This document shows positions 24,294 to 52,816 of a stretch of DNA of 64,000 nucleotides, piece by piece (the first letter of the stretch is position 1; every line of letters begins with the position of its first letter). Source of the DNA: Bacteroidales bacterium (GTDB lineage: Bacteria; Bacteroidota; Bacteroidia; Bacteroidales; Bacteroidaceae); the NCBI GenBank assembly GCA_024690405.1, contig JAILCU010000117.1:253-64252 (forward strand), given 5' to 3'. The position numbers were made by a program, and so were the translations under genes. The notes under the pieces were generated by a model, which saw only the letters and a program-made list of their open reading frames with translations, searched no databases and had not been told where the DNA came from.

Positions 24294-24713
24294 ATGAAGG
24301 AACTACGCGCAAGCAAACTGTTAGACATACGATTCAGCGAAGTTGACTCCATGGGAGTCGTCTGGCACGGTTCGTACCCACTCTATTTCGAGGATGCCCG
24401 CGAGGAATGGGGCCGAAAATATGGTTTCGGCTATCTTGACATGTTCGAACATGAGTTCTACGCCCCCCTTGTCGACTTGCAGTTTTGCTACAAGCGCCCT
24501 ATAATATATGGTATGCGCCCGCGCGTGGACATCATCTATCGTCCCACCGAGGCCGCCAAGATTATTTACGACTACGAGATTCATGACACCCGCGACGAGA
24601 GTCTGCTCACCACCGGGCATAGCATCCAGGTGTTCATGAACAAACAATATCAACTGCTTTGGGAGAATCCTCCCTTCTACGAGCAATGGAAACAACGATG
24701 GGAAAACGAGTAG
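24294..24713 (+). CDS. 4HBT/YbgC-type acyl-CoA/ACP thioesterase
   Basis: IRFSEVDSMGVVWHGSYPLYFEDAREEW carries the catalytic-Asp motif of YbgC/4HBT hotdog thioesterases. Confidence 0.75.
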   Translation: MKELRASKLLDIRFSEVDSMGVVWHGSYPLYFEDAREEWGRKYGFGYLDMFEHEFYAPLVDLQFCYKRPIIYGMRPRVDIIYRPTEAAKIIYDYEIHDTRDESLLTTGHSIQVFMNKQYQLLWENPPFYEQWKQRWENE

Positions 24714-25813
24714 CCAAAGTCATCGCTCACCACGCGCTGACCCCTCTGGCCGACGGTAGTCTCGAGAACTACCGCCTCGTCAAAGAGGGGCGTTCGGCCG
24801 TACAGCATCACGATGCCCAGGAATGGAACGTCGGCGAAGATTTTATGGCTGGTCTGATTGCAACGCCTTTTGCCTCTCCGAGAGCAACGAATCTGGCCTT
24901 GCACTCCATCCGTTGTGCCTTGGAACAATTATCCGAGCCACTTCCGACTAGCGATACGATGCTCATAATCAGCACCACAAAAGGCAATATCGAACTCATC
25001 AACCACGCGCGTGCCGATGTCCGGTTAGGTGCAATGGCAGAACAGATTGCCCACGAGTTAGGCCTCACACGCCAACCTGTTGTGGTGAGCAATGCTTGCA
25101 CGAGCGGTGTCTGCGCCCAAGTGGTCGCACAACGCTTGCTGACGGCGGGCGTATGCCGCTATGCAATCGTCTGCGGCGTAGAAGCCCAGAGTCGTTTCAT
25201 CGTGAGTGGTTTCCAAAGTTTCCACGCCCTGTCACCCGAGCCCTGCCGCCCCTTCAGCAAGAACCGTATCGGACTCAATGTGGGCGAAGCCGCAGCCACC
25301 ATTATCTATGCGGCCACGCCTGCCGAAGACATTCAACCAAACGATTGGGTCCTTCGTGCCGGAGCAATCCGCAACGACGCCAATCATATCAGCGGCCCCT
25401 CGCGAACAGGCGAAGGCAGTTACCGTGCTTTGAAAGCCGTGATGACAGGCGCAAAGGCCGATGAATTGGCATTCATCAGTCTGCATGGCACCGCCACGCC
25501 CTACAACGACGAAATGGAAAGTATTGCCGTAGACCGCGCCGGCCTGATCGACGTCCCTATCGGCAGTCTGAAAGGCTACTACGGGCATACCATGGGCGCT
25601 GCCGGTGTACTCGAGACCATCCTCTCGATGGCCGCCGTTGACGACCATACCGTCCTGGCTACCTTAGGCTACGACGATGAACTTGGCGTAAGCCATCCCG
25701 TAAAGGTCGCCTCTACCAACCGCAGCACCGACAAACGTGCATTCCTCAAACTAATCAGCGGTTTCGGAGGTTCCAATGCTGCCATCCGCATGCAGAAAGG
25801 AGGCGTACAATGA
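24698..25813 (+). CDS. beta-ketoacyl synthase (catalytic)
   Basis: It has NACTSGVCA (Cys), LHGTATPYND (His) and GYYGHTMGAAG (His). I set the start at ATG 24698, a 16-nt overlap with the thioesterase gene. Confidence 0.8.
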   Translation: MGKRVAKVIAHHALTPLADGSLENYRLVKEGRSAVQHHDAQEWNVGEDFMAGLIATPFASPRATNLALHSIRCALEQLSEPLPTSDTMLIISTTKGNIELINHARADVRLGAMAEQIAHELGLTRQPVVVSNACTSGVCAQVVAQRLLTAGVCRYAIVCGVEAQSRFIVSGFQSFHALSPEPCRPFSKNRIGLNVGEAAATIIYAATPAEDIQPNDWVLRAGAIRNDANHISGPSRTGEGSYRALKAVMTGAKADELAFISLHGTATPYNDEMESIAVDRAGLIDVPIGSLKGYYGHTMGAAGVLETILSMAAVDDHTVLATLGYDDELGVSHPVKVASTNRSTDKRAFLKLISGFGGSNAAIRMQKGGVQ

Positions 25814-26394: not shown

Positions 26395-26652
26395 ATGGAA
26401 GAATTAATTGAACAACTGAAGAAGCAAATTATCGAAGTATTGAACCTGGAAGACGTCACTCCCGCAGACATCGAAAACGATGCGCCTCTGTTTGGCGAAG
26501 GCCTCGGCCTCGATAGCATCGATGCGCTCGAGTTAATTGTCATGATGGAAAAAGAATATGGCATCAAGTTGAAGAATCCCGCCGAAGGTAAGGAAATCTT
26601 CAAGAGCATCAATGTGATGGCTCAGTATGTCAACGAACATCGTACGAAATAA
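26395..26652 (+). CDS. acyl carrier protein
   Basis: The 85-aa protein has the motif LGLDSIDALELIV. Confidence 0.85.
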   Translation: MEELIEQLKKQIIEVLNLEDVTPADIENDAPLFGEGLGLDSIDALELIVMMEKEYGIKLKNPAEGKEIFKSINVMAQYVNEHRTK

Positions 26653-26661: not shown

Positions 26662-28911
26662 ATGAGTGAACCTATCCTGATTACTGGAATAGGCATCGTG
26701 TCGGCCATCGGTTTAGACCGTGCCGAGACGCTGGCATCGCTCCGGGCAGAACGGACAGGCGTCAGTGCGTTGCGTTTCCTGAAAACGGATCATCACGAAT
26801 TTCCTGTAGGCGAGGTGCCGCTCTCTACTGACGAGATGGCTGAGCGCATGGGAATCCCGGAGGGACAGCCTCGCACGCGCACTGCCCTCATGGGCATGAT
26901 GGCACTTCAGCAAGCCCTGAAAGAAGCACGTCTGGAAGCGTCAGATATGGCTCGTGCCGCTTTCGTATCCGGCACGACCGTCGGCGGTATGGATATGAGC
27001 GAGCAATTCTATCTCGACTTCCTGAACAACGACCTTCACAACGATTATATCTCGCAGCACGACTGTGGCGCTTGCACCGAGAGCATTGCCGACCATTTTG
27101 GTCCGTTTGCCTCCGTGTCAACATTGTCTACGGCTTGTTCGTCGGCCGCCAACGCCATGATCAACGGTGCCAACGACTTGCGTTGCGGACGTCACGAGAT
27201 AGCGGTTGTCGGCGGAAGTGAATGCATCACCAAGTTCCACCTCAATGGTTTCAACTCGCTGATGATTCTCGACCACGAACAGTGCAGGCCTTTTGACGAG
27301 ACACGTGCCGGCTTGAACCTGGGCGAGGGAGCAGCCTTCCTGGTCCTCGAGACCGAGGCCTCTGCACGCCGCCGCGGCGTCAAGCCGTTGGGCGTGCTTG
27401 AAGGCTATGGCAACGCTTGCGATGCTTTCCATCAGACCGCTTCGTCGCCTGATGGCGAAGGTTCTTACCGGGCAATGAAAGAGGCTTTGGCGGATGCCGG
27501 TCTGACACCTGCAGATATCGACTATGTCAATGCTCATGGTACGGGCACGCCCAACAACGACTCCAGCGAGAGTCAGGCAATGATGCGCCTTTTTGGCGCT
27601 GATATGCCACCAGTAAGCAGCACCAAGTCGTTCACAGGTCACACCACAAGTGCTTCCGGCAGTATAGAAGCAGTCATCTGCCTGCTGGCCCTGCAAGAGC
27701 AGTTTCTGCCTGTCAATTTGGGATGGCAGCACCAAATGCCTGATGGCATTACACCTGTCACCGACCCGCATCCCCAGCGTCCATTACGCCATGTCCTCTG
27801 TAATTCCTTTGGATTCGGAGGAAACGACAGTTCGCTGGTGCTGGCGTTGCCAACAGACACCGAGCCTGCAGCATCGGACAAACAAGTAACGGAAAAGCAG
27901 GCAACAGCCAATATCCCTGTTTACATCACTGCAGCCGAGCAGATTTCTATACAGAAAGGTCTCTGTGAGGAATGGATAGAGAATCCTATCCGTTACGAAG
28001 AGCCCTATGTCCGGTCTCTCGATGTCGACTTTAAGCAATGGTTTACGCCAAGTGAATCACGCCGCATGGGCAAACTGCTCAAGCGTGCACTTGCCACTTC
28101 GTTGACGGCCATGCAGAAGAGCGGAACAGAGCACCCCGATGCCGTCATCACAGGCACCGGGCTGGGTTGCATTGAGAATACTGAAATCCTTCTGACACAC
28201 CTCTGCGAGGAGGGCGAAGAGAACTGCAAACCGACACCTTTCATGCAGTCGACCCATAATACCATCAGTTCGCTCGTCAGCATCCATACCCGCTCCCACG
28301 GCTATAACGCCACCTATGCCCACAAAGAAGCCTCTTTTGACTGTGCCCTTGAGGATGCCTGGCTGCAGATGCAGTTACGCTGCATCCAGACAGCACTCGT
28401 AGGTGGTCAGGACGAGATGACACCCAAATATTTTGGGCTGCTCTGCAAGACTGGCTATCTGGGGCATCCGGGACAGACGGCCGGCGAAGCGGCTGTCAGC
28501 GTCATGCTTGATACCAACGCATCGGAGAAAGCCCTCTGCCGACTCACCTATTTCAAGCGCTGCTACCGCCCCACTCAAGATCTGTTGGCACAAGTGGCTG
28601 CTGAAATAGGGAAGGTGAGCGCTGTGATGACCGCCGTCACGGGTCAGGTCCACCCCGACTCGCCAATGCTTCGCACCGCAGCAACCCTTTTCCCAGATAC
28701 GCCGCTGCTCCAATTCAAGAATCTCTTCGGAGAAAGTTATACTGCTTATGGCTTAGGTCTCTACGCTACTGCGCAAGTGCTCCACCACCAGCAGTTGCCC
28801 GAAGACATGCTGATACCTGGTTGTGGACAACCGACAGCGCTCTCGCGCATTCTCGTGCTGAATCAAATCAACGACAAGGACTACACCTTTGCGGTGTTGG
28901 AAGCCTTGTAA
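26662..28911 (+). CDS. fused ketosynthase and CLF-like protein
   Basis: The N-terminal half has TACSSAANA, NAHGTGTPNND and KSFTGHTTSASG and ends FGFGGNDSSLVL at about aa 395. After a linker, a second thiolase-like half of about 320 aa lacks the triad. Confidence 0.8.
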   Translation: MSEPILITGIGIVSAIGLDRAETLASLRAERTGVSALRFLKTDHHEFPVGEVPLSTDEMAERMGIPEGQPRTRTALMGMMALQQALKEARLEASDMARAAFVSGTTVGGMDMSEQFYLDFLNNDLHNDYISQHDCGACTESIADHFGPFASVSTLSTACSSAANAMINGANDLRCGRHEIAVVGGSECITKFHLNGFNSLMILDHEQCRPFDETRAGLNLGEGAAFLVLETEASARRRGVKPLGVLEGYGNACDAFHQTASSPDGEGSYRAMKEALADAGLTPADIDYVNAHGTGTPNNDSSESQAMMRLFGADMPPVSSTKSFTGHTTSASGSIEAVICLLALQEQFLPVNLGWQHQMPDGITPVTDPHPQRPLRHVLCNSFGFGGNDSSLVLALPTDTEPAASDKQVTEKQATANIPVYITAAEQISIQKGLCEEWIENPIRYEEPYVRSLDVDFKQWFTPSESRRMGKLLKRALATSLTAMQKSGTEHPDAVITGTGLGCIENTEILLTHLCEEGEENCKPTPFMQSTHNTISSLVSIHTRSHGYNATYAHKEASFDCALEDAWLQMQLRCIQTALVGGQDEMTPKYFGLLCKTGYLGHPGQTAGEAAVSVMLDTNASEKALCRLTYFKRCYRPTQDLLAQVAAEIGKVSAVMTAVTGQVHPDSPMLRTAATLFPDTPLLQFKNLFGESYTAYGLGLYATAQVLHHQQLPEDMLIPGCGQPTALSRILVLNQINDKDYTFAVLEAL

Positions 28912-29377: not shown

Positions 29378-30007
29378 ATGAGAAAGTTGTTATTTATAAT
29401 AGGTCTCTGGCTGTCGATGGGTGCATTTGCCCAGTCGGCCGTATCCAAGAGCGAGCAGGAGCGCATCATCCGTGAAATCAACACTGCAGCACAAGCCATC
29501 CGCACGCTGCAATGTACGTTCGTTCAGACCAAGGAACTCAGCATCATGAACGACAAGATGGTGAGCAACGGCACGATGTCTTTTGCCCAGCCGAACAAAC
29601 TCTGCTGGCACTATACCTCGCCCTATGACTACACCTTCATCATCACCGGTGAAAAGGTGCTTATCGGTAAGGGTAAGAACCGCAACAGCATTGACCTGAA
29701 GAGCAGTCAGGCTTTTCAGGGCATTGCCAAACTGATAGCCGGAAGTGTGACGGGCAAGTGCCTCACACAAACCGATGAGTTTGATGTCAAAATACTGGCT
29801 GACAAACGCTATTACGTTGCCCAACTCATTCCAAAGACCAAGAGGTTGAAAAAGATGTTCAAGACCATCCGCCTCAACTTCAACCGTGCCAGCAGCACGA
29901 TGGAACGCGTGGAGATGATTGAAAACAGTGGAGACAACACCACAATCGTGTTCCAGGACGTGAAACAAAACCAAAGCATCAGTGAGAAGACATTTACTCT
30001 GGATTAG
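29378..30007 (+). CDS. LolA-like outer-membrane carrier protein
   Basis: A signal peptide is followed by the LolA-family pattern TLQCTFVQTKELSIMNDKMVSNGTMSFAQPNKLCWHYTSPYDYTFIITGEKVLI. Confidence 0.7.
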   Translation: MRKLLFIIGLWLSMGAFAQSAVSKSEQERIIREINTAAQAIRTLQCTFVQTKELSIMNDKMVSNGTMSFAQPNKLCWHYTSPYDYTFIITGEKVLIGKGKNRNSIDLKSSQAFQGIAKLIAGSVTGKCLTQTDEFDVKILADKRYYVAQLIPKTKRLKKMFKTIRLNFNRASSTMERVEMIENSGDNTTIVFQDVKQNQSISEKTFTLD

Positions 30008-30437: not shown

Positions 30438-30812
30438 ATGATACTGATGAATGACTTTTTCAAGGTTCTCTCCGCCACGCAGGACGAGGCATCTTCCACC
30501 TACGAGATTGCGCTGAACCCTGAGCATTTTATCTACAAAGCCCATTTTCCAGGCAATCCCATCACACCGGGCGTTTGCCAATTAGGCATTGTTGAAGAGT
30601 TGCTGTCGCAGCAGACAGGCCAGCCCTTGCTGCTGTCTCATGTCAACAACATCAAGTATATGAGCATTATCTCGCCGCTCAACAGTCCGACCCTGCAAGT
30701 TCGCTTTTCGCGACTTCAACCTACAGACGACGGCTATAGCCTTCAAGTGCTGATGGCCAATGAGCAAGCCTCGTTCACCAAGATGTCCCTGCAATTCACC
30801 CGTAAGGTGTAA
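30438..30812 (+). CDS. FabZ/FabA-like 3-hydroxyacyl-ACP dehydratase
   Basis: The catalytic motif AHFPGNPITPGV matches the FabZ HFPxxPxxPGV pattern. Confidence 0.75.
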   Translation: MILMNDFFKVLSATQDEASSTYEIALNPEHFIYKAHFPGNPITPGVCQLGIVEELLSQQTGQPLLLSHVNNIKYMSIISPLNSPTLQVRFSRLQPTDDGYSLQVLMANEQASFTKMSLQFTRKV

Positions 30813-30839: not shown

Positions 30840-31589
30840 ATGCGCATCACCCTTCTCATACCCACCTATAACAACGCCACTACGGTTTGCGAAGTCATCC
30901 GTCGTGCCACTGCGGTATGGGAAAACGTGATGGTCGTCAACGACGGCAGCACGGACGACACCCTAACCCGATTGCAGGCATTAAGGGAAGAGTTGACTTT
31001 CGAGTTGGTCTCTTACACTGGGAACCGCGGTAAAGGGGGCGCCTTGAAAGCGGGATTCCGCCGTGCCAAAGAGATGGGCTTCACTCATGTGCTGACCCTT
31101 GATGCCGACGGACAGCACTATCCCGAGGATGCACCGCGCCTTATCGAAGCGGGTGAACAGAATCCCGAAGCCCTTATCGTCGGTAGCCGTTCGTTCGAAG
31201 ACAAGAATATGCCAGGCGGTAACGTCTTCGCGAACAAATTCAGCAACTTCTGGTTCACGGTGCAGACCTTACAAAGCATCCCTGACACCCAAACCGGTTT
31301 CCGCCTATATCCCCTCGCACACATTGGAGGGTTAAGCGTACTCACCTCCCGCTACGAAGCGGAGTTGGAGTTGCTCGTCTTCAGTGCTTGGCGCGGCACT
31401 AAGATTATCCCTGTCACGGTGCGGGTCTACTATCCTTCTCCCGAGGAGCGCGTGACCCATTTCCGTCCGACATTGGATTTCTTGCGCATCACCGTTCTCA
31501 ATACGGTGTTATGCCTGTTGGCCATCGTTTATGGTGGTCCGCGCATGCTGATCAATAAGATTATAAAACTGTTTCATCGCCCATCCTGA
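30840..31589 (+). CDS. family 2 glycosyltransferase (DPM1/ArnC-like, with a C-terminal TM helix)
   Basis: It has IPTYNN, VVNDGSTDDT and LDADGQH (DxD). The C-terminal hydrophobic segment is VLNTVLCLLAIVYGG. Confidence 0.85.
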   Translation: MRITLLIPTYNNATTVCEVIRRATAVWENVMVVNDGSTDDTLTRLQALREELTFELVSYTGNRGKGGALKAGFRRAKEMGFTHVLTLDADGQHYPEDAPRLIEAGEQNPEALIVGSRSFEDKNMPGGNVFANKFSNFWFTVQTLQSIPDTQTGFRLYPLAHIGGLSVLTSRYEAELELLVFSAWRGTKIIPVTVRVYYPSPEERVTHFRPTLDFLRITVLNTVLCLLAIVYGGPRMLINKIIKLFHRPS

Positions 31590-34500: not shown

Positions 34501-35214
34501 GAATGGGTGTGGAAGAATCCCCTCTACAGCCTCATCCTCCGTGCGGCAGAATTCTATCCCGTAAGCGAGGGCGTCGACAATATCCACTACCGCGTGGCAG
34601 ACCTCCTCCGTCGCGGTTATAGCGTCATCACTTTCCCCGAAGGTACCCGCTCCAAGGATTGCCAGATACATCGTTTCCATCAAGGCGCTTTCCATATGGC
34701 CAAGGAACACGGCGTTGATATTCTGCCCATTTTCCTGACGGGTCTCGGCCACGTCCTGCCCAAGGACGAACTCGCGTTCCGCCGCGGACAGATGCACATG
34801 GAAATTGGCAAGAGAATGACACCGGAGGAATTTGAGCAGACAGACACACGCACACTCACACACCAGTTCCATCATTTATTCATTGAAAAGTACGCAGCAT
34901 TGCGGCGAGAACACGAAAAGACTCTGGCCGTCTTGCCTTATGTGCGTTATCAATATATATATAAGGAAGTGGGGGTGAAACGCGAAGCACTCCGACGCCT
35001 CAAGGAAATCAAAGCAAAGGCTGCGGAAATCGATGCTTGGAGCGAGGGCTGCGAGCGTACCATCGAACATTGCGGGCAAGGCGAACTGGCCTTTGTCTTC
35101 GCATTAGTGCACCCCGACGTGCAAGTGGTTGCCACCGACCCCGACCCAGACAAGATTGCTGTGGCACAAAACGTCAATATCCATCTCAAGAATCTCCGGT
35201 TCGAAGTGTCATGA
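31597..35214 (+). CDS. trifunctional fusion: MMPL/RND-type exporter, PlsC-type acyltransferase and a class I methyltransferase-like tail
   Basis: The 1205-aa protein has two blocks of TM helices separated by a soluble loop (aa 1 to about 880). The acyltransferase motifs are NHQSQLD (HX4D, 34435-34452) and FPEGTRS (34633-34653). The tail is CGQGELAFVFALVHPDVQVVATDPDPDKI, which resembles SAM motif I. Confidence 0.8.
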   Translation: MNPFIWTYNHLSPRRWLALTLWLGALAVSLVLSSRIHLKEDIGDFLSTDSTSTRYMSVFQQIGGQNRIVVVASSDESDAEARADTIKAALADFTMFLSDADTAQVIKDVSIQTDEEAFAEMLDFIVDNAPLLLTKADLQRADSLLSSPTYVHEALEQNRQMLQFPTGGFTELTVRKDPLHLFTPLLTRLQTLRGNNNYTLDEGYIFTPDHRAGIGFITSPFGASESGQNRALKELLEKTAATTASAHSSVHVSTIGAPLIAVTNADQIKTDGLIAGLLSILLIALILWYVFRRVSDIMWMVLSILTGYTIALGVMSLYHHELSVIVLGTGSVLIGIAANYPLHYLDHRRHEHDERKALSDMVPPLLTGNITTVSAFACLAWMDSEAMRDLGVLGALVLIGTILFVLTILPVLAAKHRHPSAPDTASSSETIPVNEKAATKEEVTTNENADETKDFTPYRPEAATSPVAAKRSLWSQRLLQISRSPWFFLLMVAITCVLGYFSLQTTFDTNLQHINYMTTEQREHLSLLNVGLETATGNEVLSVSEGMTAEEALMNAEKMNDSLTSTGLQVRSLSGLMPSQHLQQENIARWNEFVSRHRQTLTDQLLTEGHALGFSGHAFEPFLTLLDTSWEPQDADFFKPIEAVIGAPFILRGEDTAPLRVVSYIQSAEPMAEAEKQQWRERFAHLGFVFDNRDVQTSLSTTLSDDFNYIGFVCGFVVFFFLWLSMASLELSLMSFLPLAVGWVWILGIMQLLGIQFNIVNIILATFIFGQGDDYTIFITEGLVHEHTYGRPVLKSYKNSVALSALLMFIGIGSLIIARHPAMRSLGEVVIVGMATVVLMAFYLPPLIFRWITTENGKLREVPLTLERIAFTVFASVFYLIVASIYQIFAFLWSHIGRYTKARKLFFHRTLCRISRFCIEHVPGTTFSVRNPYGETLERPAIIVANHQSQLDLMAVLSISPKAVILTKEWVWKNPLYSLILRAAEFYPVSEGVDNIHYRVADLLRRGYSVITFPEGTRSKDCQIHRFHQGAFHMAKEHGVDILPIFLTGLGHVLPKDELAFRRGQMHMEIGKRMTPEEFEQTDTRTLTHQFHHLFIEKYAALRREHEKTLAVLPYVRYQYIYKEVGVKREALRRLKEIKAKAAEIDAWSEGCERTIEHCGQGELAFVFALVHPDVQVVATDPDPDKIAVAQNVNIHLKNLRFEVS

Positions 35215-36704
35215 AGAAATGCGTCATCATAGGCAGCGGCCTCGGAGGCCTCTCTACGGGTGTCATTCTGGCACGCGAAGGGTTCGACGTGACCATCCTC
35301 GAACAGGAAGCGCAGCCCGGAGGTTGCCTGCAATGTTTCCAGCGACGCGGTGTCAAGTTCGAGACTGGCATGCATTTCATCGGCAGCGCCCAACGCGGAC
35401 AGACGCTGAACCGCTTGATGCGCTATCTCGAGATTGACGATATCGCGCTGCAGGCCCTTGATACGCAAGCCTACGACATTGTCCGCTTAGGCAACGATGA
35501 GTTTCGTTTCCCCAATGGAACCGAGGCCTTCATCGAGCAGATGAGCCGGTATTTCCCGCACGAGCGAGAAGGTATTGAAGCATACATTAATTGCGTGGAG
35601 AGCGTTGCCCAGGCCTCGAGTCTGCACACCCTCAACCTGGAGAATGCAGACAGCGCTATCAGCACGGAATATCAGTTGCGGAGCATCAACGAAGTCATTG
35701 AGAGTCACATTCAGGACCATGTCTTGCGCGATGTGCTCGTGGGGAATCTGCCTCTCTATGCGGCCCAACGCGACAAGACGCCTTTCTCCACCCACGCCTT
35801 CATCGTTGATTTCTATAATCAAAGCAGTTTCCGCGTTACGGGCGGCAGCGACCTCATCGGACTGGCACTGCAAAAGAGGTTGGAGCACCACGGAGGACAT
35901 CTGTTCACACATCAGAAGGCGGTGAAGATTCACGACGACGGTCAGCGGGTGACAGGCGTTACCACTGCAGATGGCAACTACTACGATGCCGATATCGTTG
36001 TCAGCGCCATTCATCCGGTGCCAACCCTGGCGATGACCGACAGCCCGCTCATCCGTCCTGCCTTCCGCCGGCGCATGAACCACTTGCCCAACACCATCGG
36101 CATTTTCGCGGTTTACCTGCATTTCAAGGAAGGCCGTATGCCTTATCTCAACAGCAATTACTATGGCTACCGCCCAGGTGTCTCACCTTGGGACAGTGGG
36201 GAATATACCCTCGCCGACTGGCCACGTGGATACCTCTATATGCATCTCTGTCACCAAGCACAGCCCCGATATGCCCGTGCCGGTGTCATCCTCAGTTATA
36301 TGAGATTCGAAGAGATGGCGCCATGGGTGGGCACGGAAGTGGGCCATCGCGGAGCCGATTATGAACAGTTCAAGCGCCAGCGTGCCGAACGTCTCATTGA
36401 CGCGGTGGGCAAGGCTTTCCCCACGCTGCGCGACAGCATAGAACATTATTATACATCTACGCCGCTCACCTATCTCAACTATACAGGCACACCCGAGGGC
36501 AGTGCCTATGGTATCGCCCGCGATATCTCATTGGGCGTCTCATGCCATGTCCCCCAGCGGACCAAACTGCCCGGTCTGTACCTGACAGGACAAAACATCA
36601 ACTCACATGGTATCCTGGGAGTATTGGTGGGCACGGTCGTTACCTGCTCCGACCTCCTTGGTACAGAGTACCTTTATCAGCAGATCATCAAAGCGAATTT
36701 ATGA
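35211..36704 (+). CDS. FAD-dependent oxidoreductase, phytoene desaturase (CrtI)-like, copy 1
   Basis: The Rossmann motif is KKCVIIGSGLGGLSTGVILAREGFDVTILEQ...GG. The C-terminal CrtI-like motif is LPGLYLTGQNINSHGILG. It has an ATGA overlap with the upstream gene. Confidence 0.8.
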   Translation: MKKCVIIGSGLGGLSTGVILAREGFDVTILEQEAQPGGCLQCFQRRGVKFETGMHFIGSAQRGQTLNRLMRYLEIDDIALQALDTQAYDIVRLGNDEFRFPNGTEAFIEQMSRYFPHEREGIEAYINCVESVAQASSLHTLNLENADSAISTEYQLRSINEVIESHIQDHVLRDVLVGNLPLYAAQRDKTPFSTHAFIVDFYNQSSFRVTGGSDLIGLALQKRLEHHGGHLFTHQKAVKIHDDGQRVTGVTTADGNYYDADIVVSAIHPVPTLAMTDSPLIRPAFRRRMNHLPNTIGIFAVYLHFKEGRMPYLNSNYYGYRPGVSPWDSGEYTLADWPRGYLYMHLCHQAQPRYARAGVILSYMRFEEMAPWVGTEVGHRGADYEQFKRQRAERLIDAVGKAFPTLRDSIEHYYTSTPLTYLNYTGTPEGSAYGIARDISLGVSCHVPQRTKLPGLYLTGQNINSHGILGVLVGTVVTCSDLLGTEYLYQQIIKANL

Positions 36705-38218
36705 AAAATGTGATTATCATAGGAGGTGGATTCGGAGGTCTTACGACCGGTGCCCTGCTGGCCCATGAAGGCTTGCACGTCACTGTCATCGAGAAGAACC
36801 ATGAAATCGGCGGTGGGCTGCAGAGTTTCACACGCCACGGCATCCATTTCGAAACAGGTATGCACATTCTCGGCGGATTGTCGGAGGGCGGTTCGGTGCG
36901 TCGTATTTTCGAGTACCTGGGCATTATGGACAAAGTGTGCATCAAGCGCTGCGACCTCGATTGCATGGATGAAGTCACCTATCTCCGCACCGGCGACCAC
37001 TATCAGTTGCCTCAGGGACGCGAAGCCTTCACCGAGGCTTTGTGCCGCTATTTCCCTGCCGAACGCGAAGGCATTCATCGCTACTTACAGGCTTGCTACG
37101 ACCTCACCGAGGAAGTGGATATCTTCTATTTGCGTCCAACGACCAGTGTCTTCTCAGCCCATAGCGAACGCTTCATGCAACCGGCCGACGAGTTTATCGC
37201 CGATTTCATCGAAGATCCGCGACTACGTGACCTCCTGGCGTATATGAATCCCATGTACGGAGGTGTGAAAGGCCATACGCCGGCTTATATCCATGCACTC
37301 ATCAATGTGCTGTACATCGGCGGCCAATACCATTTCATCGGCCGCAGTCAGCACTTGGCAGAACTCCTGGCAGACGTCATCCGCAAGAACGGCGGCGAAG
37401 TCATCACCGGGAAAGGGGTCAAGAGCATACACGTCGAGGACAAGTGCGTCACTGACGTTGAAACTACCGACGGCACGCACTTTCAAGGCGATTACTATAT
37501 TTCATCCATACACGTCAAGACGCTGCTGCCATTGCTCACGGACGGTGCCCTGCCACGAGGTTATGTCAACCGATTGACCGACGCGCCCGTCACCTATTCC
37601 GCCTTTATTCTCTACCTCGTCTTCAAGCCTGAGACCTTCCCCTACATCAACCATACAGGCTACATCCAGGACGACTACGGACAGATATGGACCCACGCGC
37701 AATACGACGGCACCTGGCCCCGTGGCATTATGTTCCTTACGCCGCCAAGTGAACATCAAGGTCCGTGGGCAAAGCGAATGACGCTCAACTGCATTATGAG
37801 TTGGGACGAAGTGAAGCGATGGGAGCACACTCACATCGGTCATCGGGGCCGCGACTATGAAGCGTGGAAGCAAGAACAGGCCGAACGCATCATTGCCAAA
37901 CTCGAGCAACGTTTTCCGCAAATCCGTTCGTGCATCGATACTTATTACACAGCCTCGCCGCTCACCATCCGCGACTATTACGCATCACCCGAAGGCTCGC
38001 TCTACGGCTACAGCAAGGACGGTCTGGATACAGCCCGGACCCTGATTGCACCAGTCACCCGCGTCCGCAACCTCCTGCTCTCAGGACAATGCGTCAACCT
38101 CCACGGCATCTGTGGCGTTCCGCTCACGGCCATCAATACCGCCGAATGTATTTTCGGATTCAACAACATCGTGAACAAGATCAACGAAACGACCCTGCCG
38201 CACGACGAGAAAAAGTAA
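36701..38218 (+). CDS. FAD-dependent oxidoreductase, phytoene desaturase (CrtI)-like, copy 2
   Basis: KNVIIIGGGFGGLTTGALLAHEGLHVTVIEK...GGG is clearly paralogous to copy 1 along its whole length. It has an ATGA overlap with copy 1. Confidence 0.8.
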   Translation: MKNVIIIGGGFGGLTTGALLAHEGLHVTVIEKNHEIGGGLQSFTRHGIHFETGMHILGGLSEGGSVRRIFEYLGIMDKVCIKRCDLDCMDEVTYLRTGDHYQLPQGREAFTEALCRYFPAEREGIHRYLQACYDLTEEVDIFYLRPTTSVFSAHSERFMQPADEFIADFIEDPRLRDLLAYMNPMYGGVKGHTPAYIHALINVLYIGGQYHFIGRSQHLAELLADVIRKNGGEVITGKGVKSIHVEDKCVTDVETTDGTHFQGDYYISSIHVKTLLPLLTDGALPRGYVNRLTDAPVTYSAFILYLVFKPETFPYINHTGYIQDDYGQIWTHAQYDGTWPRGIMFLTPPSEHQGPWAKRMTLNCIMSWDEVKRWEHTHIGHRGRDYEAWKQEQAERIIAKLEQRFPQIRSCIDTYYTASPLTIRDYYASPEGSLYGYSKDGLDTARTLIAPVTRVRNLLLSGQCVNLHGICGVPLTAINTAECIFGFNNIVNKINETTLPHDEKK

Positions 38219-38311
38219 CATCAACAGATGAGCCAATCTGTCAAGGACCAGCCATCTGAAACATCATATTTTAGGAACCTTAAAATAAAAGAAACCTTAA
38301 GATAGTAAATT

Positions 38312-39607
38312 ATGGAGACAATCAAAATGAAACTGATCTACCCGAAGTGGCAGAAACTGCGCGGGCAGACAACATTTAACCTTCCGCCTCACGGCCCTGT
38401 GGCGTTTGCGGCAACCCTTCCCGAGTATGTCGACGTATCCTTTACCGACGAGAACGTAGAGGAAATCAACTTCGACGAACCTTGCGATATCGTAGCACTC
38501 TCGATGATGCTTTCGACACAGGTGAAACGGGGTTGGGAGATTGCCGACGAATACCATCGCCGGGGTAAACTCGTGATGGCTGGCGGCATCTCTTCAATGC
38601 TCCACGCCGAAGATATGGTGAACCACGTTGACAGCCTCTTCCTCGGCGAGAGCGAAGGGCGCATGGAACAAGTGATGCAGGACTTCGTGCGCGGCGAGAT
38701 GAAAAAGGTCTACAACTTTATGGGGCAGATGCCACCGATTGAGGACGTAGGTCCGTGTCGTCGCGACCTCTACAAGCGCGACCTTTACAACCACAAGGGT
38801 GTGCCTATGGTTGACCTCTTCCACGCCAGCCGTGGATGTCGTTTCAGTTGCTATCCCTGTGCGGTCAGTTACCTCGGCGGCCGCAAATTCCGCCCTCGTC
38901 CCATCGACAAAGTTGTAGAAGATATGGCTTCGATTGACAACAACCGCCTGTTCATCGTCGACAACTCGCTCGCTCAGAACAAGGATTGGGAGCGCGAACT
39001 CTTCAAGGCCATAGCACCGCTGAAGAAGAAATGGATCAGTCACACCATTGAGGACGACCCCGAAATCCTGGACCTCGCAGGCAAGGCCGGCGCCTGGTAT
39101 GTCTATCAGGCGGTCTATGACACCAGCGACTACATCAAGGAACGTGTCAAGCGCTACCACGACAACGGAATCGGTGTGGAAGGCACGATTCTCTTAGGTC
39201 TGGACAACCAGACGGAGGACGACATCAAACGCCTCATCGATTTCCTCGGAGAAATCGACCTCGACCTGGCTGAGTTCACAGTGATGACACCGTTCCCCCA
39301 CACCAAGGGCTACGATGATTTGTTGCGCCAAGGCCGTATCTTCGACTTCGACTGGAACCACTACAATGCCGGACAGGTGGTCTTCCAACCCAAGCATATG
39401 ACGCCTGAACGCCTACAGGAACTCTACGACTACGCCTGGAAGAGTTTCTACAAGGACGAGACGCAAGAGGCCAAGATGTTCAACCTGTTCTGTCAGGTAG
39501 CCCTGCGCGAGATGAACGAAGGCACCTATCGCCCCCGCGATCGCCGACTCATGAACCGCAGTTTCGGTAAAGTTGTCGACCGCAGCAAGCGTAACGTGAA
39601 CTTATAA
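38312..39607 (+). CDS. B12-binding-domain radical SAM enzyme
   Basis: The N-terminal part is a Rossmann-like B12-binding domain (DIVALSMMLSTQ...LVMAGGIS). The radical SAM cluster motif CRFSCYPC (CX3CX2C) is at 38837-38860. Confidence 0.85.
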   Translation: METIKMKLIYPKWQKLRGQTTFNLPPHGPVAFAATLPEYVDVSFTDENVEEINFDEPCDIVALSMMLSTQVKRGWEIADEYHRRGKLVMAGGISSMLHAEDMVNHVDSLFLGESEGRMEQVMQDFVRGEMKKVYNFMGQMPPIEDVGPCRRDLYKRDLYNHKGVPMVDLFHASRGCRFSCYPCAVSYLGGRKFRPRPIDKVVEDMASIDNNRLFIVDNSLAQNKDWERELFKAIAPLKKKWISHTIEDDPEILDLAGKAGAWYVYQAVYDTSDYIKERVKRYHDNGIGVEGTILLGLDNQTEDDIKRLIDFLGEIDLDLAEFTVMTPFPHTKGYDDLLRQGRIFDFDWNHYNAGQVVFQPKHMTPERLQELYDYAWKSFYKDETQEAKMFNLFCQVALREMNEGTYRPRDRRLMNRSFGKVVDRSKRNVNL

Positions 39608-39741: not shown

Positions 39742-40101
39742 ATGAAAGTACCCAAAGAATATTACGACGAAATCTTTGAATTCCGCGGTCAATGGGATAT
39801 GCCTTCCGCCTGCGGACTGAAGATTCGTACCGTGGAAGGCGTCACCTATGTGATTGTCACAGAGATGTATCAAGAGAATCCCGGAACCAGCGTGACCTAT
39901 GCCGGCCGCAGCCTGGCAGAACAGATTTGCGAGGCCAAGGGACTCAATATGAACGAGATTGTGTACCTCGAATGCACGCCTAACACCAACTCCAAGTTGT
40001 CGTTCTACGACGAAGAATACTTCCGCGTGGACTTCAGCGGCGAGCGACCTGCCTACGAACAACTCCCTGCGGAAGAAGTCCACCGCGTGTTAGGCAACTG
40101 A
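39742..40101 (+). CDS. hypothetical cytoplasmic protein (about 119 aa)
   Basis: The ORF is 39667..40101, and I prefer the start at ATG 39742 (MKVPKEYYDEIFEF...). It has no signal peptide, and I recognise no motif. Confidence 0.5.
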   Translation: MKVPKEYYDEIFEFRGQWDMPSACGLKIRTVEGVTYVIVTEMYQENPGTSVTYAGRSLAEQICEAKGLNMNEIVYLECTPNTNSKLSFYDEEYFRVDFSGERPAYEQLPAEEVHRVLGN

Positions 40102-40119: not shown

Positions 40120-41280
40120 ATGATGCGAACCGTGAAGCACATCTTATGCAGCGCCGTGCTACTCCTCACTGCTACGACGGCTATAGCAGCGGCCTCTGAA
40201 GCAGCCACAACAACTGCCTTAGCCACTGCCCTTCCCTCAGCGCCCCCAAAGGCCTCTTTGCCGGCGAAAAGTGCAGCAGCAGAGAGCACCCCGGCAGCGA
40301 AAGCAAGTGCTCCCGCAGAGGCTACTCCGGCAGCGAAAGCAAGTGCGGCAGCAGAGAGCACCCCGGCAGCGAAAGCAAGTGCTCCCGCAGAGGCCTCGAC
40401 AGCGAGCGTACCACTTGCTCCCATCAGGCTCTGGGAAGAAACTCCTGTGCACGCACGCGGCGTGACGCTTGTTCCTTATCTCCCTGAGGCAGGCCACGCC
40501 AGCCGCTTCGGCACGACGAACGGCACACCGGCCATCATCATCTGTCCCGGTGGAAGTTATTGCTGGCATGACTACGAGGCGGAAGGCACGCTTGTGGCCG
40601 AGTGGCTGCAGCGTGAAGGTATTGCGGCATTTGTGCTGAAATATCGTGTTCAAGGCATTTTCCCCTATGTGTTTCACACCCGTTTAATCGCCCGCGGAAA
40701 CCAGCACCCTGATGCGCTCACCGACGTGCAACGTGCTATTCAATATGTACGTGAACATACGAAGGATTTCGGTATCGACGAACACCGTCTCGGCGTGATG
40801 GGTTTCTCGGCCGGCGGCCATCTGAGTATGAGTGCAGCGGCCTACGCCTCCACCGATTTCCTGTCACAGCACGGCATCCGCCATCACGTCAGCCTGCGAC
40901 CCGATTTCGTAGCACCCATTTATCCCGTAGTGACTATGCACAAGCCTTACGTTCACAGCCGCAGCCGCCGTGCCTTGCTCGGTGAGTACCGCAAGCACCG
41001 GCAGGCTATGCGCGATTCAATGTCCCTGGAGATGCACGTCCCGAACGATTGTCCGCCGGTGTTTCTTCTCAACTGCACCGACGACCCCATCGTGATGTAT
41101 CAGAACAGCGAATTGCTCGATAGCGCCCTTACCGCTGCCGGCGTTCCTCACCAGTACACGCAATATCGGACCGGCGGCCACGGGTTCGGTGGGGATTCAG
41201 CACGTTTCACGGCCGAGACGGCCCACTGGCAAGAGACCTTCCTGCTATGGCTCACCCAACTTTTTCATACAACCCTCTGA
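40120..41280 (+). CDS. secreted alpha/beta hydrolase (Aes-type esterase/lipase) with an Ala/Pro-rich repeat linker
   Basis: The signal peptide is MMRTVKHILCSAVLLLTATTAIAA. It has an oxyanion-region CPGGSY, the nucleophile elbow GFSAGGH and a C-terminal GGHGF. Confidence 0.8.
   Translation: MMRTVKHILCSAVLLLTATTAIAAASEAATTTALATALPSAPPKASLPAKSAAAESTPAAKASAPAEATPAAKASAAAESTPAAKASAPAEASTASVPLAPIRLWEETPVHARGVTLVPYLPEAGHASRFGTTNGTPAIIICPGGSYCWHDYEAEGTLVAEWLQREGIAAFVLKYRVQGIFPYVFHTRLIARGNQHPDALTDVQRAIQYVREHTKDFGIDEHRLGVMGFSAGGHLSMSAAAYASTDFLSQHGIRHHVSLRPDFVAPIYPVVTMHKPYVHSRSRRALLGEYRKHRQAMRDSMSLEMHVPNDCPPVFLLNCTDDPIVMYQNSELLDSALTAAGVPHQYTQYRTGGHGFGGDSARFTAETAHWQETFLLWLTQLFHTTL
40276..40394 (+). repeat. 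in-frame 72-nt tandem duplication inside the esterase linker
   Basis: The identical 47-mer gcagcagagagcaccccggcagcgaaagcaagtgctcccgcagaggc occurs at 40276-40322 and 40348-40394. It encodes AESTPAAKASAPAEA repeats. Confidence 0.85.
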
Positions 41281-41283
41281 CTT

Positions 41284-42576
41284 ATGAACCACGAAGATAT
41301 TGAATTCAGACAACCTGCTGAGATACGCGCCTTCCAGGAACAACTCCTGCGCAAGGCACTGGACTACCTCGACGCGCATTCGCCTTACTATCAGCGCCTG
41401 TTCAGGGAACAGCACATTGATGTGAAGGAGATACACACGCTGGACGACCTCCGGCGCCTGCCCTTTACAGAGAAGAAGGACTTGCAACTCTTCAACGACG
41501 ATTTCCTCTGCTGCCCAAAAGAGAAGATAGTGGATTACATCACCACCAGCGGCACCCTGGGCGAACCCGTCACCTTCGGCTGCACCGATGCAGACCTTGA
41601 ACGCCTGGCCTACAACGAACAGAAGTCTTTTGCCTGTGCTGGTCTCAAGCCCGGCAATATCCTGCAGTTGATGACGACCATCGACAAACGTTTTATGGCA
41701 GGTCTGGCCTACTTCCTCGGCATCCGCCGATTGGGCGCCAGCATTATCCGTGTAGGCAACGGAATCCCCGAACTGCAGTGGGATACGATCCAGCGATTGC
41801 ACCCCGACACGATTATGTGCGTGCCCTCATTCATCTTGCGCTTGATTGAATATGCCGAGGAACACGGAATTGACTACCGCGCCAGCAGCGTCAAACGCAT
41901 TATCGGCATCGGCGAAGGACTGCGCGACCAGGATTTCAACCTCAACCTGCTCGGCCGGCGCATCAAGGAGAAATGGGATGTTGAACTCTATGCCACCTAC
42001 TCCAGCACCGAGATGGGGGCAACCTTCTCGGAATGTCAGTACGGGTGTGGCGGACACGTTCACCCCGAACTCATCATCGTCGAGATCATCGGTGACGATG
42101 ACCAACCGGTCCCCGACGGGCAGCCTGGCGAAGTGGTCGTGACCACCCTTGGCGTGGAGGCGATGCCCTTGCTCCGTTTCCGCACAGGTGATATCGCGGC
42201 CAAACGTGTTGAGCAGTGCCAATGCGGACGTTGGAGTTATCGGCTGACGCCGCTCGTAGGGCGCAAGAACAATATGATAAAACTCAAGGGCACGACGCTC
42301 TATCCTCCTGCAATCAACGACGTTCTGGACAACACCGAGTACGTCCAGAACTATATCGTATATGTGCGTTCATCCTCTGCCGGCACCGACCAGGTGGACG
42401 TCTGCGTAGGTCTGAAGCACGAACCTCCGTTTGACGCCGTCAAAGACCTGAAGGACCGTTTCCGCTCGCGCATCCGTGTGGCTCCGAATGTCGAGATTCT
42501 CAACGTGGATGAAATCCAGCGGCGCAATTTCCCCGCCAAGAGCCGCAAACCCATCAAATTCGTGGACCTCAGATAA
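41284..42576 (+). CDS. PaaK-like adenylate-forming enzyme (phenylacetate-CoA ligase / F390 synthetase family)
   Basis: The 430-aa protein has TTSGTLGEPV (the AMP-binding P-loop-like motif), YSSTEMG and FRTGD, with the short PaaK architecture. Confidence 0.8.
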   Translation: MNHEDIEFRQPAEIRAFQEQLLRKALDYLDAHSPYYQRLFREQHIDVKEIHTLDDLRRLPFTEKKDLQLFNDDFLCCPKEKIVDYITTSGTLGEPVTFGCTDADLERLAYNEQKSFACAGLKPGNILQLMTTIDKRFMAGLAYFLGIRRLGASIIRVGNGIPELQWDTIQRLHPDTIMCVPSFILRLIEYAEEHGIDYRASSVKRIIGIGEGLRDQDFNLNLLGRRIKEKWDVELYATYSSTEMGATFSECQYGCGGHVHPELIIVEIIGDDDQPVPDGQPGEVVVTTLGVEAMPLLRFRTGDIAAKRVEQCQCGRWSYRLTPLVGRKNNMIKLKGTTLYPPAINDVLDNTEYVQNYIVYVRSSSAGTDQVDVCVGLKHEPPFDAVKDLKDRFRSRIRVAPNVEILNVDEIQRRNFPAKSRKPIKFVDLR

Positions 42577-42607: not shown

Positions 42608-43750
42608 ATGGACACTACCGCACAATTCGACGATATCCGTCCTTTCTACGACTCCGAAATCCCGGCAGCGATGCAGCGCATCGCAGAGAGCCCTCATTTC
42701 CCGCTTCTGGCACAATATGTCTATCCCGGTGCCGACCTTGAAAAAGTCAAGCAACTGCTGGTGCAGTTCAAGACCGTACGCGATTTCCAACTCGAAGTGA
42801 TGCGCTGCGTCAACGAACAGGTCATTGCCCGCAGCATCACCGATTTCACGTATGACGGCATTGAGCGCCTCGACCCTGAAAAACGCTATCTTTTCGTGAG
42901 CAACCACCGCGACATTATGCTCGACGCGTGTCTGCTGCAATACGTTCTGTGGAAGAACGGGCACGAGACCACGGAAATCACTTTCGGAGCCAATCTGATG
43001 AGTTCACCATTGGTGATTGATATCGGTAAGTCAAACAAGATGTTCCGCGTGGAGCGAGGCGGCACGCCCCGCGAGTTCTACCGTTCATCCATGCATCTTT
43101 CGCAGTACATCCGCCATTGCATCACCGAGAAGCACCAGTCCGTGTGGATTGCTCAGCGCAACGGCCGTACCAAGGACGGTATCGACCAGACCGACCAAGG
43201 CATCATCAAGATGTTCGGAATGAGTATGGCCAAGCAACCCGTCCAGGCACTGGCTGAATTGAACATCGTACCCGTGAGCATCAGTTACGAATGGGAAAGT
43301 TGCGACTTGCTGAAAGCACGCGAACTCTACCTGAGCCAAGGCACCAAATATGTCAAGCAACCCGGCGAGGACCTCAACAGCATCCTCACGGGCGTGTTGC
43401 AGCCTAAAGGCTGCGTGCATATCTCTTTCTGCGAGCCTGTCACTGCCGCCGACCTCGAGCCCCTGGCCGCCGATGTCAACAGCGAGTTCAACCGCGCTGT
43501 TGCCCGTCTCTTGGACAAGCGCATCACCAGTGCCTACCATCTCACCCCCAACAACTACATCGCTTATGACCTGCTGCACTGCACGTCGAAATATGCCGAC
43601 CGCTACACAGCCGCCCAGCGCGATGCATTCCTGGCCCACACCGAAAAACTCAGCAACTTGCACATCGACGACCTCTGCACCATCAATGCCATGCGCTCGA
43701 TTCTCTGGGGCATCTATGCCAATCCCATTGACAACGTCGTCACGGAATAA
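42608..43750 (+). CDS. PlsC-superfamily (lysophospholipid) acyltransferase
   Basis: The 380-aa protein has YLFVSNHRDIMLDA (the acyltransferase His/Asp block) and AQRNGRTKDG (block III-like). Confidence 0.7.
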   Translation: MDTTAQFDDIRPFYDSEIPAAMQRIAESPHFPLLAQYVYPGADLEKVKQLLVQFKTVRDFQLEVMRCVNEQVIARSITDFTYDGIERLDPEKRYLFVSNHRDIMLDACLLQYVLWKNGHETTEITFGANLMSSPLVIDIGKSNKMFRVERGGTPREFYRSSMHLSQYIRHCITEKHQSVWIAQRNGRTKDGIDQTDQGIIKMFGMSMAKQPVQALAELNIVPVSISYEWESCDLLKARELYLSQGTKYVKQPGEDLNSILTGVLQPKGCVHISFCEPVTAADLEPLAADVNSEFNRAVARLLDKRITSAYHLTPNNYIAYDLLHCTSKYADRYTAAQRDAFLAHTEKLSNLHIDDLCTINAMRSILWGIYANPIDNVVTE

Positions 43751-43777
43751 AGCCTTCTCCGGTCTCCTCCATCACAA

Positions 43778-43818
43778 CAGCCCGCCGCAAACATCACATT
43801 TGCGGCGGGCTGTTTTTT
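43778..43818. terminator. strong hairpin terminator between the island and the convergent mdh
   Basis: A perfect 13-bp GC-rich stem, CAGCCCGCCGCAA/TTGCGGCGGGCTG, has an 8-nt loop and is followed by TTTTTT on the plus strand. Confidence 0.85.
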
Positions 43819-52795: not shown

Positions 52796-52816
52796 CCCGC
52801 CCCCTTTTTATCAACG

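Follow-up and report, generated by a model that had tools for sequence, protein, structure and literature searches.

A duplicated FlxV-type flavoenzyme pair and a radical SAM module in the late half of a flexirubin-type aryl-polyene cluster from a Bacteroidales bacterium

A stretch of 64,000 nucleotides from a Bacteroidales bacterium (contig JAILCU010000117.1 of GenBank assembly GCA_024690405.1, positions 253 to 64,252 of the forward strand), hereafter called the window, contains two adjacent genes for paralogous flavoenzymes, open reading frames (ORFs) A and B, followed by a gene for a radical S-adenosylmethionine (SAM) enzyme. The three genes are located in a cluster of ∼26.7 kb (17064-43814) that is of the flexirubin type, rather than the generic aryl-polyene (Ape) island it had been taken for in a preliminary description of the window. 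The cluster type is known, and the two flavoenzyme genes are, by position and annotation, a duplicated FlxV, a flexirubin gene catalogued in 2014. The explanation considered most fully here, to which we give about an even chance, is that in the late half of the cluster the duplicated FlxV pair and a module composed of the radical SAM enzyme and a small partner protein of 119 amino acids (aa) tailor the polyene.

Cluster identity and family membership were judged by the curated cut-offs of NCBIfam and the gathering thresholds (GA) of Pfam. The assignment to the flexirubin type was made because FlxA, FlxB, FlxJ and FlxY each exceed the NCBIfam equivalog cut-off (Table 1) and because the gene order matches that in Table S4 of Schöner et al. 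2014 (PMC3992019), being colinear with flxA-flxY of Chitinophaga pinensis. The 5' part encodes FlxA, FlxB, a ketosynthase (KS), FlxJ, an acyl carrier protein (ACP), an LpxL-type acyltransferase, a dehydratase, a thioesterase, a second KS, a hypothetical protein, a second ACP, a KS fused to a chain-length factor (KS-CLF) and an EamA-like protein; both ACP genes are located in gaps between called ORFs. The 3' part encodes LolA, a hypothetical protein, an ApeI-like dehydratase, a family 2 glycosyltransferase (GT2), an exporter-acyltransferase, A, B, the radical SAM enzyme, the 119-aa protein, an esterase, FlxY and an acyltransferase, so ordered that the region of A, B and the radical SAM gene belongs to the late half, that of tailoring and anchoring. 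The KS and CLF halves form one ORF of 749 aa in the window; C. pinensis (FlxN/FlxO) and the related locus L081 (401 and 324 aa) have a gene for each half. The cluster is flanked by a GH2 gene and a gene of the malate/lactate-dehydrogenase family on the opposite strand. The host resembles a Prevotellaceae/Bacteroidaceae bacterium of the rumen.

Differences from the published flexirubin clusters were also found, in that the window carries the FlxV gene in duplicate, sometimes fused in relatives, and is devoid of FlxW (a C45 N-terminal nucleophile hydrolase), FlxX, the FlxK halogenase and DarA/DarB. FlxW is the acyltransferase proposed to join the dialkylresorcinol and polyene parts. DarA-like, KAS-III/DarB-like and peptidase-C45 (FlxW) proteins were found neither in the scanned ORFs of the 64-kb window, the scope that also applies to the negative results for carotenoid genes given below, nor in the gene tables of loci L081, L082 and L086, the search being confined to these regions of the genomes. 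FlxK and FlxX are absent from the window.

ORFs A and B align end to end with 33% identity (E 4e-89), and both are joined to the preceding gene by overlapping codons. The junctions were read directly as gtgtcATGAag at 35211-35214, comprising the stop of the 1205-aa ORF and the start of A, and as tttATGAaa at 36701-36704 between A and B; with ATGA at both junctions, the stop of each upstream gene overlaps the next start. These results verify the coordinates and the ATGA overlaps first proposed for two paralogues of about 500 aa. An N-terminal GxGxxG Rossmann motif is present in each protein (IIGSGLGG in A, IIGGGFGG in B), and the Pfam models Amino_oxidase (PF01593; 64.5 bits for A and 66.8 for B, GA 19.8) and NAD_binding_8 (PF13450; 54.7 and 56.4 bits) were matched. 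The 1205-aa gene overlapped by A encodes MMPL and PlsC domains, an order identical to that of Cpin_1873/1874 in C. pinensis and of the gene pair Fjoh_1078 and Fjoh_1077 in Flavobacterium johnsoniae, where FlxV (Cpin_1874, Fjoh_1077; PMC3992019) likewise follows FlxU and precedes FlxY in a colinear cluster. Since A and B occupy the FlxV position, directly after and translationally coupled to FlxU, they probably originated by a lineage-specific duplication of FlxV, and they are filed by position and annotation as predicted FlxV-type enzymes of the RetSat/CrtISO branch. FlxV receives a single mention in PMC3992019, as a possible reductase of a beta-keto group, and no paper on FlxV, Fjoh_1077 or Cpin_1874 later than Schöner 2014 was found in the literature searched.

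The family placement of A and B was approached with the scores of curated hidden Markov models (HMMs) as a proxy for a tree against CrtI, CrtN, CrtD, CrtISO, RetSat and HpnE. The best models were cyanobacterial-type CrtD (127.5 bits for A and 137.5 for B, cut-off 549.7) and CrtISO (104 and 88, cut-off 586.9), ahead of crtI_fam (TIGR02734; 94.3 bits for each protein, cut-off 238.1), and HpnE scored 46.7 against 283; all were far below the cut-offs and none was reached. The closest named orthology group in the NCBI/JGI annotation is RetSat (vertebrate retinol saturase), a saturase, and JGI gives homologues of A that name. That A and B are ordinary phytoene or carotene desaturases located beside a polyene cluster by chance, with the radical SAM gene derived from an unrelated pathway, is highly improbable: the likeness to carotenoid enzymes is at the family level only (Amino_oxidase, a weak crtI_fam match, and CrtI and CrtD as relatives in the PDB), the scores do not reach half the crtI_fam cut-off, translational coupling links A to FlxU, and the radical SAM gene changes place only within the cluster. 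No phytoene synthase, geranylgeranyl diphosphate synthase or cyclase was present among the scanned ORFs, UppS being the sole prenyltransferase, and neither the gene tables of related loci nor their protein-level comparisons showed a gene for any of these three enzymes. The sub-cut-off scores and the lack of crt genes in the window already contradict a carotenoid function, in agreement with the earlier proposals that the window contains no crt genes and that the pair is unlikely to act on phytoene.

In order to compare related loci, the radical SAM protein was used as query against genomes, one per species, and the best 80 of at least 201 relatives were taken. CrtI-like genes are present in 79 of these 80 loci and stay inside the polyene cluster, an association also seen in distant genomes. 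Both A-type and B-type genes occur in 52 loci, in 3 of which the B-type gene is on the opposite strand at a distance of a few kb. A single gene, nearer B (about 43% identity) than A (about 31%), is found in 23 of the 79, and A alone is visible in 4, some of these loci being truncated. Full-length A-B fusions were detected in two lineages, one of 998 aa (P0539, locus L088 3792-6788) and one of 997 aa (P0541, locus L086 8001-10994), and six contigs carry one of the fusions in the arrangement FlxU-[A-B]-radical SAM-120 aa-esterase-FlxY-acyltransferase. Apparent fusions of 866, 838 and 798 aa were rejected as truncated or frameshifted versions when the full-length 997- and 998-aa forms were found in the same clusters. 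The conserved tandem order, the start/stop overlaps and the fusion proteins argue that A and B work together.

A and B would be membrane-peripheral flavoenzymes that alter the pattern of C=C bonds in a lipid- or ACP-bound polyene beside FlxU, either jointly as a heterodimer or one after the other at two positions. Site-specific saturation of the RetSat type is preferred tentatively, desaturation comes next and is rather unlikely, and cis-trans isomerisation is less likely again. RetSat and CrtISO act on a conjugated polyene with a polar end. RetSat and the carotenoid isomerase branch (CrtISO/CrtH) of the CrtI superfamily are the nearest named orthology group, and the CrtD and CrtISO models outscore the CrtI model; A and B differ from characterized members in their scores far below the cut-offs and in a host pathway that is polyketide- or fatty-acid-like rather than isoprenoid, the likeness to RetSat being one of annotation.

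It has been proposed for clusters of anammox bacteria and Desulfotalea that desaturases supply a polyunsaturated chain that is then rearranged or cyclised by a radical SAM enzyme. Applied to the window, A and B would act as desaturases that introduce double bonds into an acyl or polyene chain already saturated in part, lengthening the chromophore before the radical SAM step. Most CrtI-family enzymes are desaturases, the best curated HMM for both A and B is that of CrtD, a C-3',4' desaturase, and the best relative in the PDB is a gamma-carotene desaturase. Exactly such roles were proposed by Rattray et al. 2009 (PMC2649909) and by Dietl et al. 2023 (PMC10139942) for the phytoene dehydrogenase-like and radical SAM genes, and orthologues of the radical SAM gene co-reside with 'ladder' radical SAM genes of TIGR04072. 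This sequence of events is nevertheless unlikely, since the KS, ketoreductase (KR) and dehydratase of the cluster, with no enoyl reductase, already yield a conjugated polyene and would leave nothing to desaturate. Further, every HMM score is far below its cut-off, the closest named orthology group is a saturase, and the anammox literature reports neither experimental evidence nor polyunsaturated intermediates.

The radical SAM ORF starts 93 nt after B, and the CX3CX2C motif C176-x3-C180-x2-C183 (38837-38860) is invariant in an alignment of 45 homologues. The catalytic core passes the Pfam model PF04055 (31.6 bits, GA 29.5). Thus the location and the CRFSCYPC motif originally described for this gene were reproduced, whereas the B12 domain ascribed to the product scores below the Pfam threshold (PF02310, 22.5 bits, GA 32.1). 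The N-terminal Rossmann domain (residues 1-135) is predicted with confidence by AlphaFold2 (AF2) and is as conserved as the catalytic core. The best match by fold was AprD4 (3e-10), followed by MgmA, MiaB, TsrM and CysS, a mixture of cobalamin users and AprD4, and searches of solved structures with the single sequence and with a profile returned only AprD4 (E 1e-3 to 4e-4, 18% identity). No curated family was reached, the best being TIGR04013 (59 bits, cut-off 251), then HpnJ (51, cut-off 578), TIGR04072 (39, cut-off 360), HpnR (35.6, cut-off 650), the MJ_0865 family (31, cut-off 360) and the Sden_1168-family P-methyltransferase NF038361 (26.3, cut-off 575). BchE likewise scored below TIGR04013. 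PhpK and TsrM models were not among the curated-HMM matches, and no auxiliary cluster motif was found in the protein. The domain order, an N-terminal Rossmann domain followed by a barrel with CX3CX2C, is that of class B radical SAM enzymes and of AprD4; the dedicated 119-aa partner is found in none of those systems.

Together with the 119-aa protein, the radical SAM enzyme would tailor the molecule on which A and B act, by a radical reaction independent of O2. The likeliest single option, adopted with reserve from domain architecture, is cobalamin-dependent (class B) C-methylation with putative use of cobalamin; a non-methylating reaction of the AprD4, BchE or Grs type is nearly as likely. In the latter case the enzyme would function without cobalamin and, like AprD4 or like BchE and the ring synthases of glycerol dialkyl glycerol tetraethers, use a 5'-deoxyadenosyl radical for dehydration, C-C bond formation or desaturation, as the substitute in anaerobes for a step that aerobic flexirubin producers carry out in another way or lack, with the cysteine-rich 119-aa protein as partner for redox or substrate presentation. 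Taken as a whole this alternative is somewhat unlikely. AprD4 is the best match by sequence and by fold, B12-binding is below threshold in Pfam, no curated class B methylase family is approached, the cluster already contains a conventional methyltransferase (FlxJ), and the obligatory small partner has three invariant cysteines. Every named carrier is an anaerobe of the Bacteroidales from gut or rumen. A radical SAM gene is lacking in both published flexirubin clusters of aerobes ('radical' is unmatched in the supplement of PMC3992019), and this distribution fits an anaerobe-specific step. Conversely, the match to AprD4 is weak, the Rossmann domain is conserved as strongly as the core, many homologues have precomputed PF02310 matches, and most characterized enzymes with this combination of Rossmann and radical SAM domains are methylases.

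The radical SAM protein is the slowest-evolving product of the cluster. Across 71 loci its median identity to the window protein is 88%, compared with 75% for FlxY, 69% for the 119-aa ORF, 67% for KS-CLF, 49% for A, 44% for B, 39% for FlxU and 35% for LolA. The best 80 loci are nearly all from metagenome-assembled genomes (MAGs) of gut or rumen Bacteroidales, the closest relative being from an uncultured Prevotellaceae MAG, with Caecibacteroides pullorum AN421 as a named carrier. Among the representatives in a 50%-identity library, only two are full-length members of the orthogroup (65% and 54% identity). The next proteins, at ≤37%, are generic B12-radical SAM proteins, and none of them reaches a curated family cut-off. 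Beyond Schöner 2014, nothing on aryl polyenes, Bacteroidales and radical SAM enzymes together was found in the literature searched.

Directly downstream of the radical SAM gene, in all 80 loci, is the 119-aa ORF, a gene that had gone unmentioned in the preliminary description. The mechanical ORF begins with TTG at 39667, and homologues begin at M26, which places the gene at 39742-40101. The product contains three invariant cysteines and gives a confident AF2 model (pLDDT 84); searches for its identity returned no Pfam match at E≤1, a best E of 0.13 by profile against the PDB, and a best E of 0.019 with TM≤0.35 by Foldseek. In seven Prevotella-like loci (L017, L019, L020, L031, L034, L052 and L057) the pair is relocated together within the cluster, away from the FlxV genes, to a position between the KS-CLF/dehydratase genes and the second KS. 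Being several kb upstream of the flavoenzyme pair in those loci, the radical SAM gene and its partner form a module separable from that pair within the cluster. As judged by gene content and synteny, the two genes are an inseparable module located in place of the FlxW/FlxX genes of aerobic clusters.

The gene upstream of A encodes a FlxU-type fusion whose tail had been counted as a methyltransferase-like candidate for a third methylation. That proposal does not hold. The C-terminus (34717-35211) contains only the start of a class I methyltransferase fold, ∼45 residues or the first third, at scores below threshold; about positions 5-60 of the 97-145 in the profiles are matched and then the protein ends, so that a third methyltransferase was ruled out. 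The tail looks like a vestige of the methyltransferase domain that C. pinensis FlxU is reported to have and is probably no candidate for methylation.

In the overall scheme that includes tailoring by the FlxV pair and the radical SAM module, the esterase and the two PlsC-type acyltransferases would remodel the product or attach it to a glycerolipid-type anchor, and FlxU and LolA would export it. Several points weigh against this scheme. The best solved relative of the radical SAM enzyme, AprD4, carries a B12-like domain, and AprD4 is not known to use cobalamin. The AF2 model of the whole radical SAM protein is mediocre (pLDDT 64), and the subthreshold PF02310 score of the window protein also counts here, many of its homologues having matches to that model. 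A and B are assigned as orthologues of Cpin_1874 by position and annotation, a single FlxV-type gene suffices in 23 of 79 loci, and the evidence from promoter and terminator is at the level of motifs only. Every reaction named for either enzyme family is inferred. Finally, the flexirubin of C. pinensis is C43H54O4 (PMC3992019), and by our own count two rings, one ester C=O and eight C=C account for this formula. The count therefore provides no obvious job for a polyene saturase, though FlxV is kept in C. pinensis.

The radical SAM orthogroup extends beyond Bacteroidales. The 65% and 54% orthologues are located on GC-rich contigs. Locus L083 contains two KS genes, two further radical SAM genes, ACPs, an ApeI-like dehydratase, ApeP, KR, LolA and a 221-aa ORF, followed by the 65% orthologue. 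A 449-aa protein of L083 (5394-6743, minus strand), encoded 3.3 kb from that orthologue, passes TIGR04072 rSAM_ladder_B12 with 380 bits (cut-off 360). Locus L085 adds a KS-CLF fusion, an aromatic ammonia-lyase and a CrtI-like gene with 26% identity to A and B. In metagenomes the same query gave at least 564 relatives, of which the best 80 loci span 31-65% GC and 62-73% identity to the window radical SAM protein. These loci repeat a module of ApeP, KR, LolA, a 221-aa ORF and the radical SAM gene, often flanked by KS-CLF, a TIGR04072-like gene, two other radical SAM genes, an AMP-ligase, GT2 and an LpxL-type acyltransferase, and CrtI-like and tyrosine ammonia-lyase genes are also near the module where contigs extend far enough. 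In L083, L098, L102, L110, L111 and L115 the TIGR04072 'ladderane-type' gene occurs with two radical SAM genes of ∼330 and ∼365 aa. Only two of the environmental loci, both of low GC, contain a homologue of the 119-aa protein (38%). The 221-aa ORF was considered as a diverged form of this partner and ruled out (hhalign probability 0.08); it has a lipoprotein-like start and occupies the FlxR position. From gene neighborhoods, the radical SAM orthogroup is a companion of aryl-polyene/FASII-like clusters (FASII, type II fatty acid synthesis) across very different genomes.

This distribution invites comparison with the putative ladderane clusters of anammox bacteria, Desulfotalea and Geobacter (PMC2649909, PMC10139942), which like the window contain divergent FabF-type KS pairs, a dedicated ACP and a FabZ/ApeI-type dehydratase. 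The unusual mix of further genes is also the same, with phytoene dehydrogenase-like genes numbering from one to three (two of them side by side in Desulfotalea) beside genes for radical SAM and B12-radical SAM enzymes, for a phenylacetyl-CoA-ligase-like protein and for a glycosyltransferase. In contrast, the window radical SAM protein does not belong to TIGR04072, and the window is without the two genes of ∼330 and 365 aa. The phytoene dehydrogenase-like, radical SAM, phenylacetyl-CoA-ligase-like and glycosyltransferase genes were described together in 2009 for putative FASII-like clusters of anammox bacteria and Desulfotalea (PMC2649909), which corrects the earlier statement that none of this chemistry is part of the characterized Ape pathway. 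A more radical possibility, which we regard as improbable, is that the Bacteroidales cluster makes no flexirubin-like pigment and that the FlxV pair, the radical SAM enzyme and its partner convert an aryl-polyene intermediate into a different envelope lipid that is saturated in part and has undergone radical methylation, cross-linking or cyclisation, with the same orthogroup performing the equivalent core step in the 'ladderane-type' FASII clusters. If true, gut Bacteroidales would provide the first experimental handle on chemistry speculated for anammox bacteria and Desulfotalea since 2006-2009.

Returning to tailoring of the aryl polyene by the two modules, the window shares with the Ape clusters of enterobacteria, Vibrio and Xenorhabdus (Johnston et al. 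2021, PMC8253772) the KS-CLF, KR, ApeI/ApeP, ACPs, thioesterase, LpxL/PlsC-type acyltransferases, GT2, LolA-like protein and MMPL exporter, and differs in a starter derived from tyrosine ammonia-lyase plus FlxY. Passages of the same paper describe aryl-polyene clusters as having a wider distribution than any other family of biosynthetic gene clusters in bacteria; the terms 'radical SAM', 'FAD' and 'oxidoreductase' are unmatched in its full text, and phytoene appears there only for carotenoids. The duplication and fusion of FlxV, the obligatory 119-aa partner and a tight radical SAM orthogroup shared with 'ladderane-type' clusters were not found in the literature searched. Within this anaerobe-type family of polyene clusters, no gene is more conserved than a single radical SAM orthogroup, which co-occurs with the 'ladderane-type' B12 radical SAM family. 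Bacteroidales are culturable and mutable. For anammox bacteria a genetic system is lacking, and attempts to express their radical SAM enzyme in another host have failed (PMC10139942), so that the function of these enzymes could be settled in Bacteroidales. The finding is of value mainly because it opens a tractable way into a long-standing question, and a settled function would also tell what the abundant Prevotellaceae and Muribaculaceae of rumen and gut put in the outer membrane. The preliminary interpretation as a whole was partly supported.

The cluster was also searched for the Bacteroidetes promoter motif TTTG/TAnnTTTG, in place of a sigma-70 scan that was uninformative (7 sites, 10.2 expected) and of the wrong promoter type for Bacteroidetes. 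Six matches were found in the window, compared with 0.83 expected, and within the cluster and at its edges the one preceding flxA is the sole complete match; the only other TAnnTTTG on the plus strand within the cluster is at 26271. No -7 motif was found by this search in the 93-nt gap between B and the radical SAM gene. Co-transcription of A and B with the polyene genes is plausible because one Bacteroidetes-type promoter-like motif precedes flxA, one strong terminator-like hairpin follows the last acyltransferase gene, and the gap contains no -7 motif. The mechanical FlxA ORF begins with TTG at 17074, inside the promoter-like motif, and the start was reset to an in-frame ATG, probably 17116 or 17122.

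Table 1. Features of the flexirubin-type cluster, with positions in the window.
Feature	Position	Strand	Evidence or remark
Bacteroidetes-type promoter-like motif TTTG-N21-TAtcTTTG	17064-17096	+	20-26 nt upstream of flxA ATG (17116/17122)
FlxA tyrosine ammonia-lyase	17116-18648	+	NCBIfam NF053541, 841 bits (cut-off 700)
FlxB short-chain dehydrogenase/reductase (SDR) ketoreductase	18669-19403	+	NF053542, 396 bits (cut-off 340)
Ketosynthase, FlxC position	19449-20714	+	Pfam ketoacyl-synt N and C domains
FlxJ-family SAM methyltransferase (described earlier as COMT-like)	21339-22442	+	NF053543, 584 bits (cut-off 560)
ACP, FlxD position	22527-22769	+	PF00550, 49.5 bits
LpxL-type acyltransferase, FlxE position	22903-23805	+	PF03279
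FabZ-like dehydratase, FlxF position	23820-24251	+	Weak NCBIfam FabZ match
4HBT thioesterase, FlxH position	24294-24713	+	PF13279
Ketosynthase, FlxI position	24659-25813	+	
ACP, FlxM position	26395-26652	+	PF00550
KS-CLF fusion, FlxN and FlxO positions	26662-28911	+	Pfam ketoacyl-synt plus Ketoacyl-synt_2
LolA-like carrier, FlxQ position	29378-30007	+	PF03548
ApeI-like dehydratase, FlxS position	30438-30812	+	Weak FabA match; homologues with PF22818 ApeI-like
GT2 glycosyltransferase, FlxT position	30840-31589	+	PF00535
FlxU-type fusion: MMPL/RND exporter, PlsC-type acyltransferase and vestigial methyltransferase N-terminus, 1205 aa	31597-35214	+	Fits published FlxU description
ORF A, predicted FlxV-type (RetSat/CrtISO-branch) flavin adenine dinucleotide (FAD) enzyme, clade A, 497 aa	35211-36704	+	
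ORF B, predicted FlxV-type FAD enzyme, clade B (also holds single-copy genes), 505 aa	36701-38218	+	
Radical SAM enzyme with N-terminal Rossmann (B12-binding-like) domain, 431 aa	38312-39607	+	Very conserved orthogroup
CRFSCYPC, CX3CX2C [4Fe-4S] motif (C176/C180/C183)	38837-38860	+	Invariant in homologue alignments
Conserved partner ORF, 119 aa, three invariant Cys	39742-40101	+	Adjoins radical SAM gene in 80/80 loci
BD-FAE/alpha-beta-hydrolase esterase with Ala/Pro-rich repeat leader	40120-41280	+	Present in 72/80 loci
FlxY 4-coumarate-CoA ligase	41284-42576	+	NF053551, 688 bits (cut-off 520)
PlsC-type acyltransferase, last cluster gene	42608-43750	+	PF01553; present in 65/80 loci
Intrinsic-terminator-like hairpin closing the cluster	43776-43814	+	16-bp stem, 10 GC pairs, T-run

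Minor observations were made on the 3' end of the cluster and its surroundings. A 36-nt tandem repeat of 3.2 copies in the esterase gene (40279-40392) encodes an N-terminal linker rich in Ala, Pro, Ser and Thr and is overlapped by a long antisense ORF; esterase homologues elsewhere (293-317 aa) appear to be without the linker, as judged by length only. Downstream of the cluster (52055-57540, plus strand) is an ordinary block for outer-membrane biogenesis with UppS, a POTRA-domain (BamA-like) protein and three consecutive OmpH/Skp-like paralogues. In locus L086 a gene for NAD-dependent glycerol-3-phosphate dehydrogenase (16082-17149) directly follows the last acyltransferase, which fits a glycerolipid-type anchor for the product.

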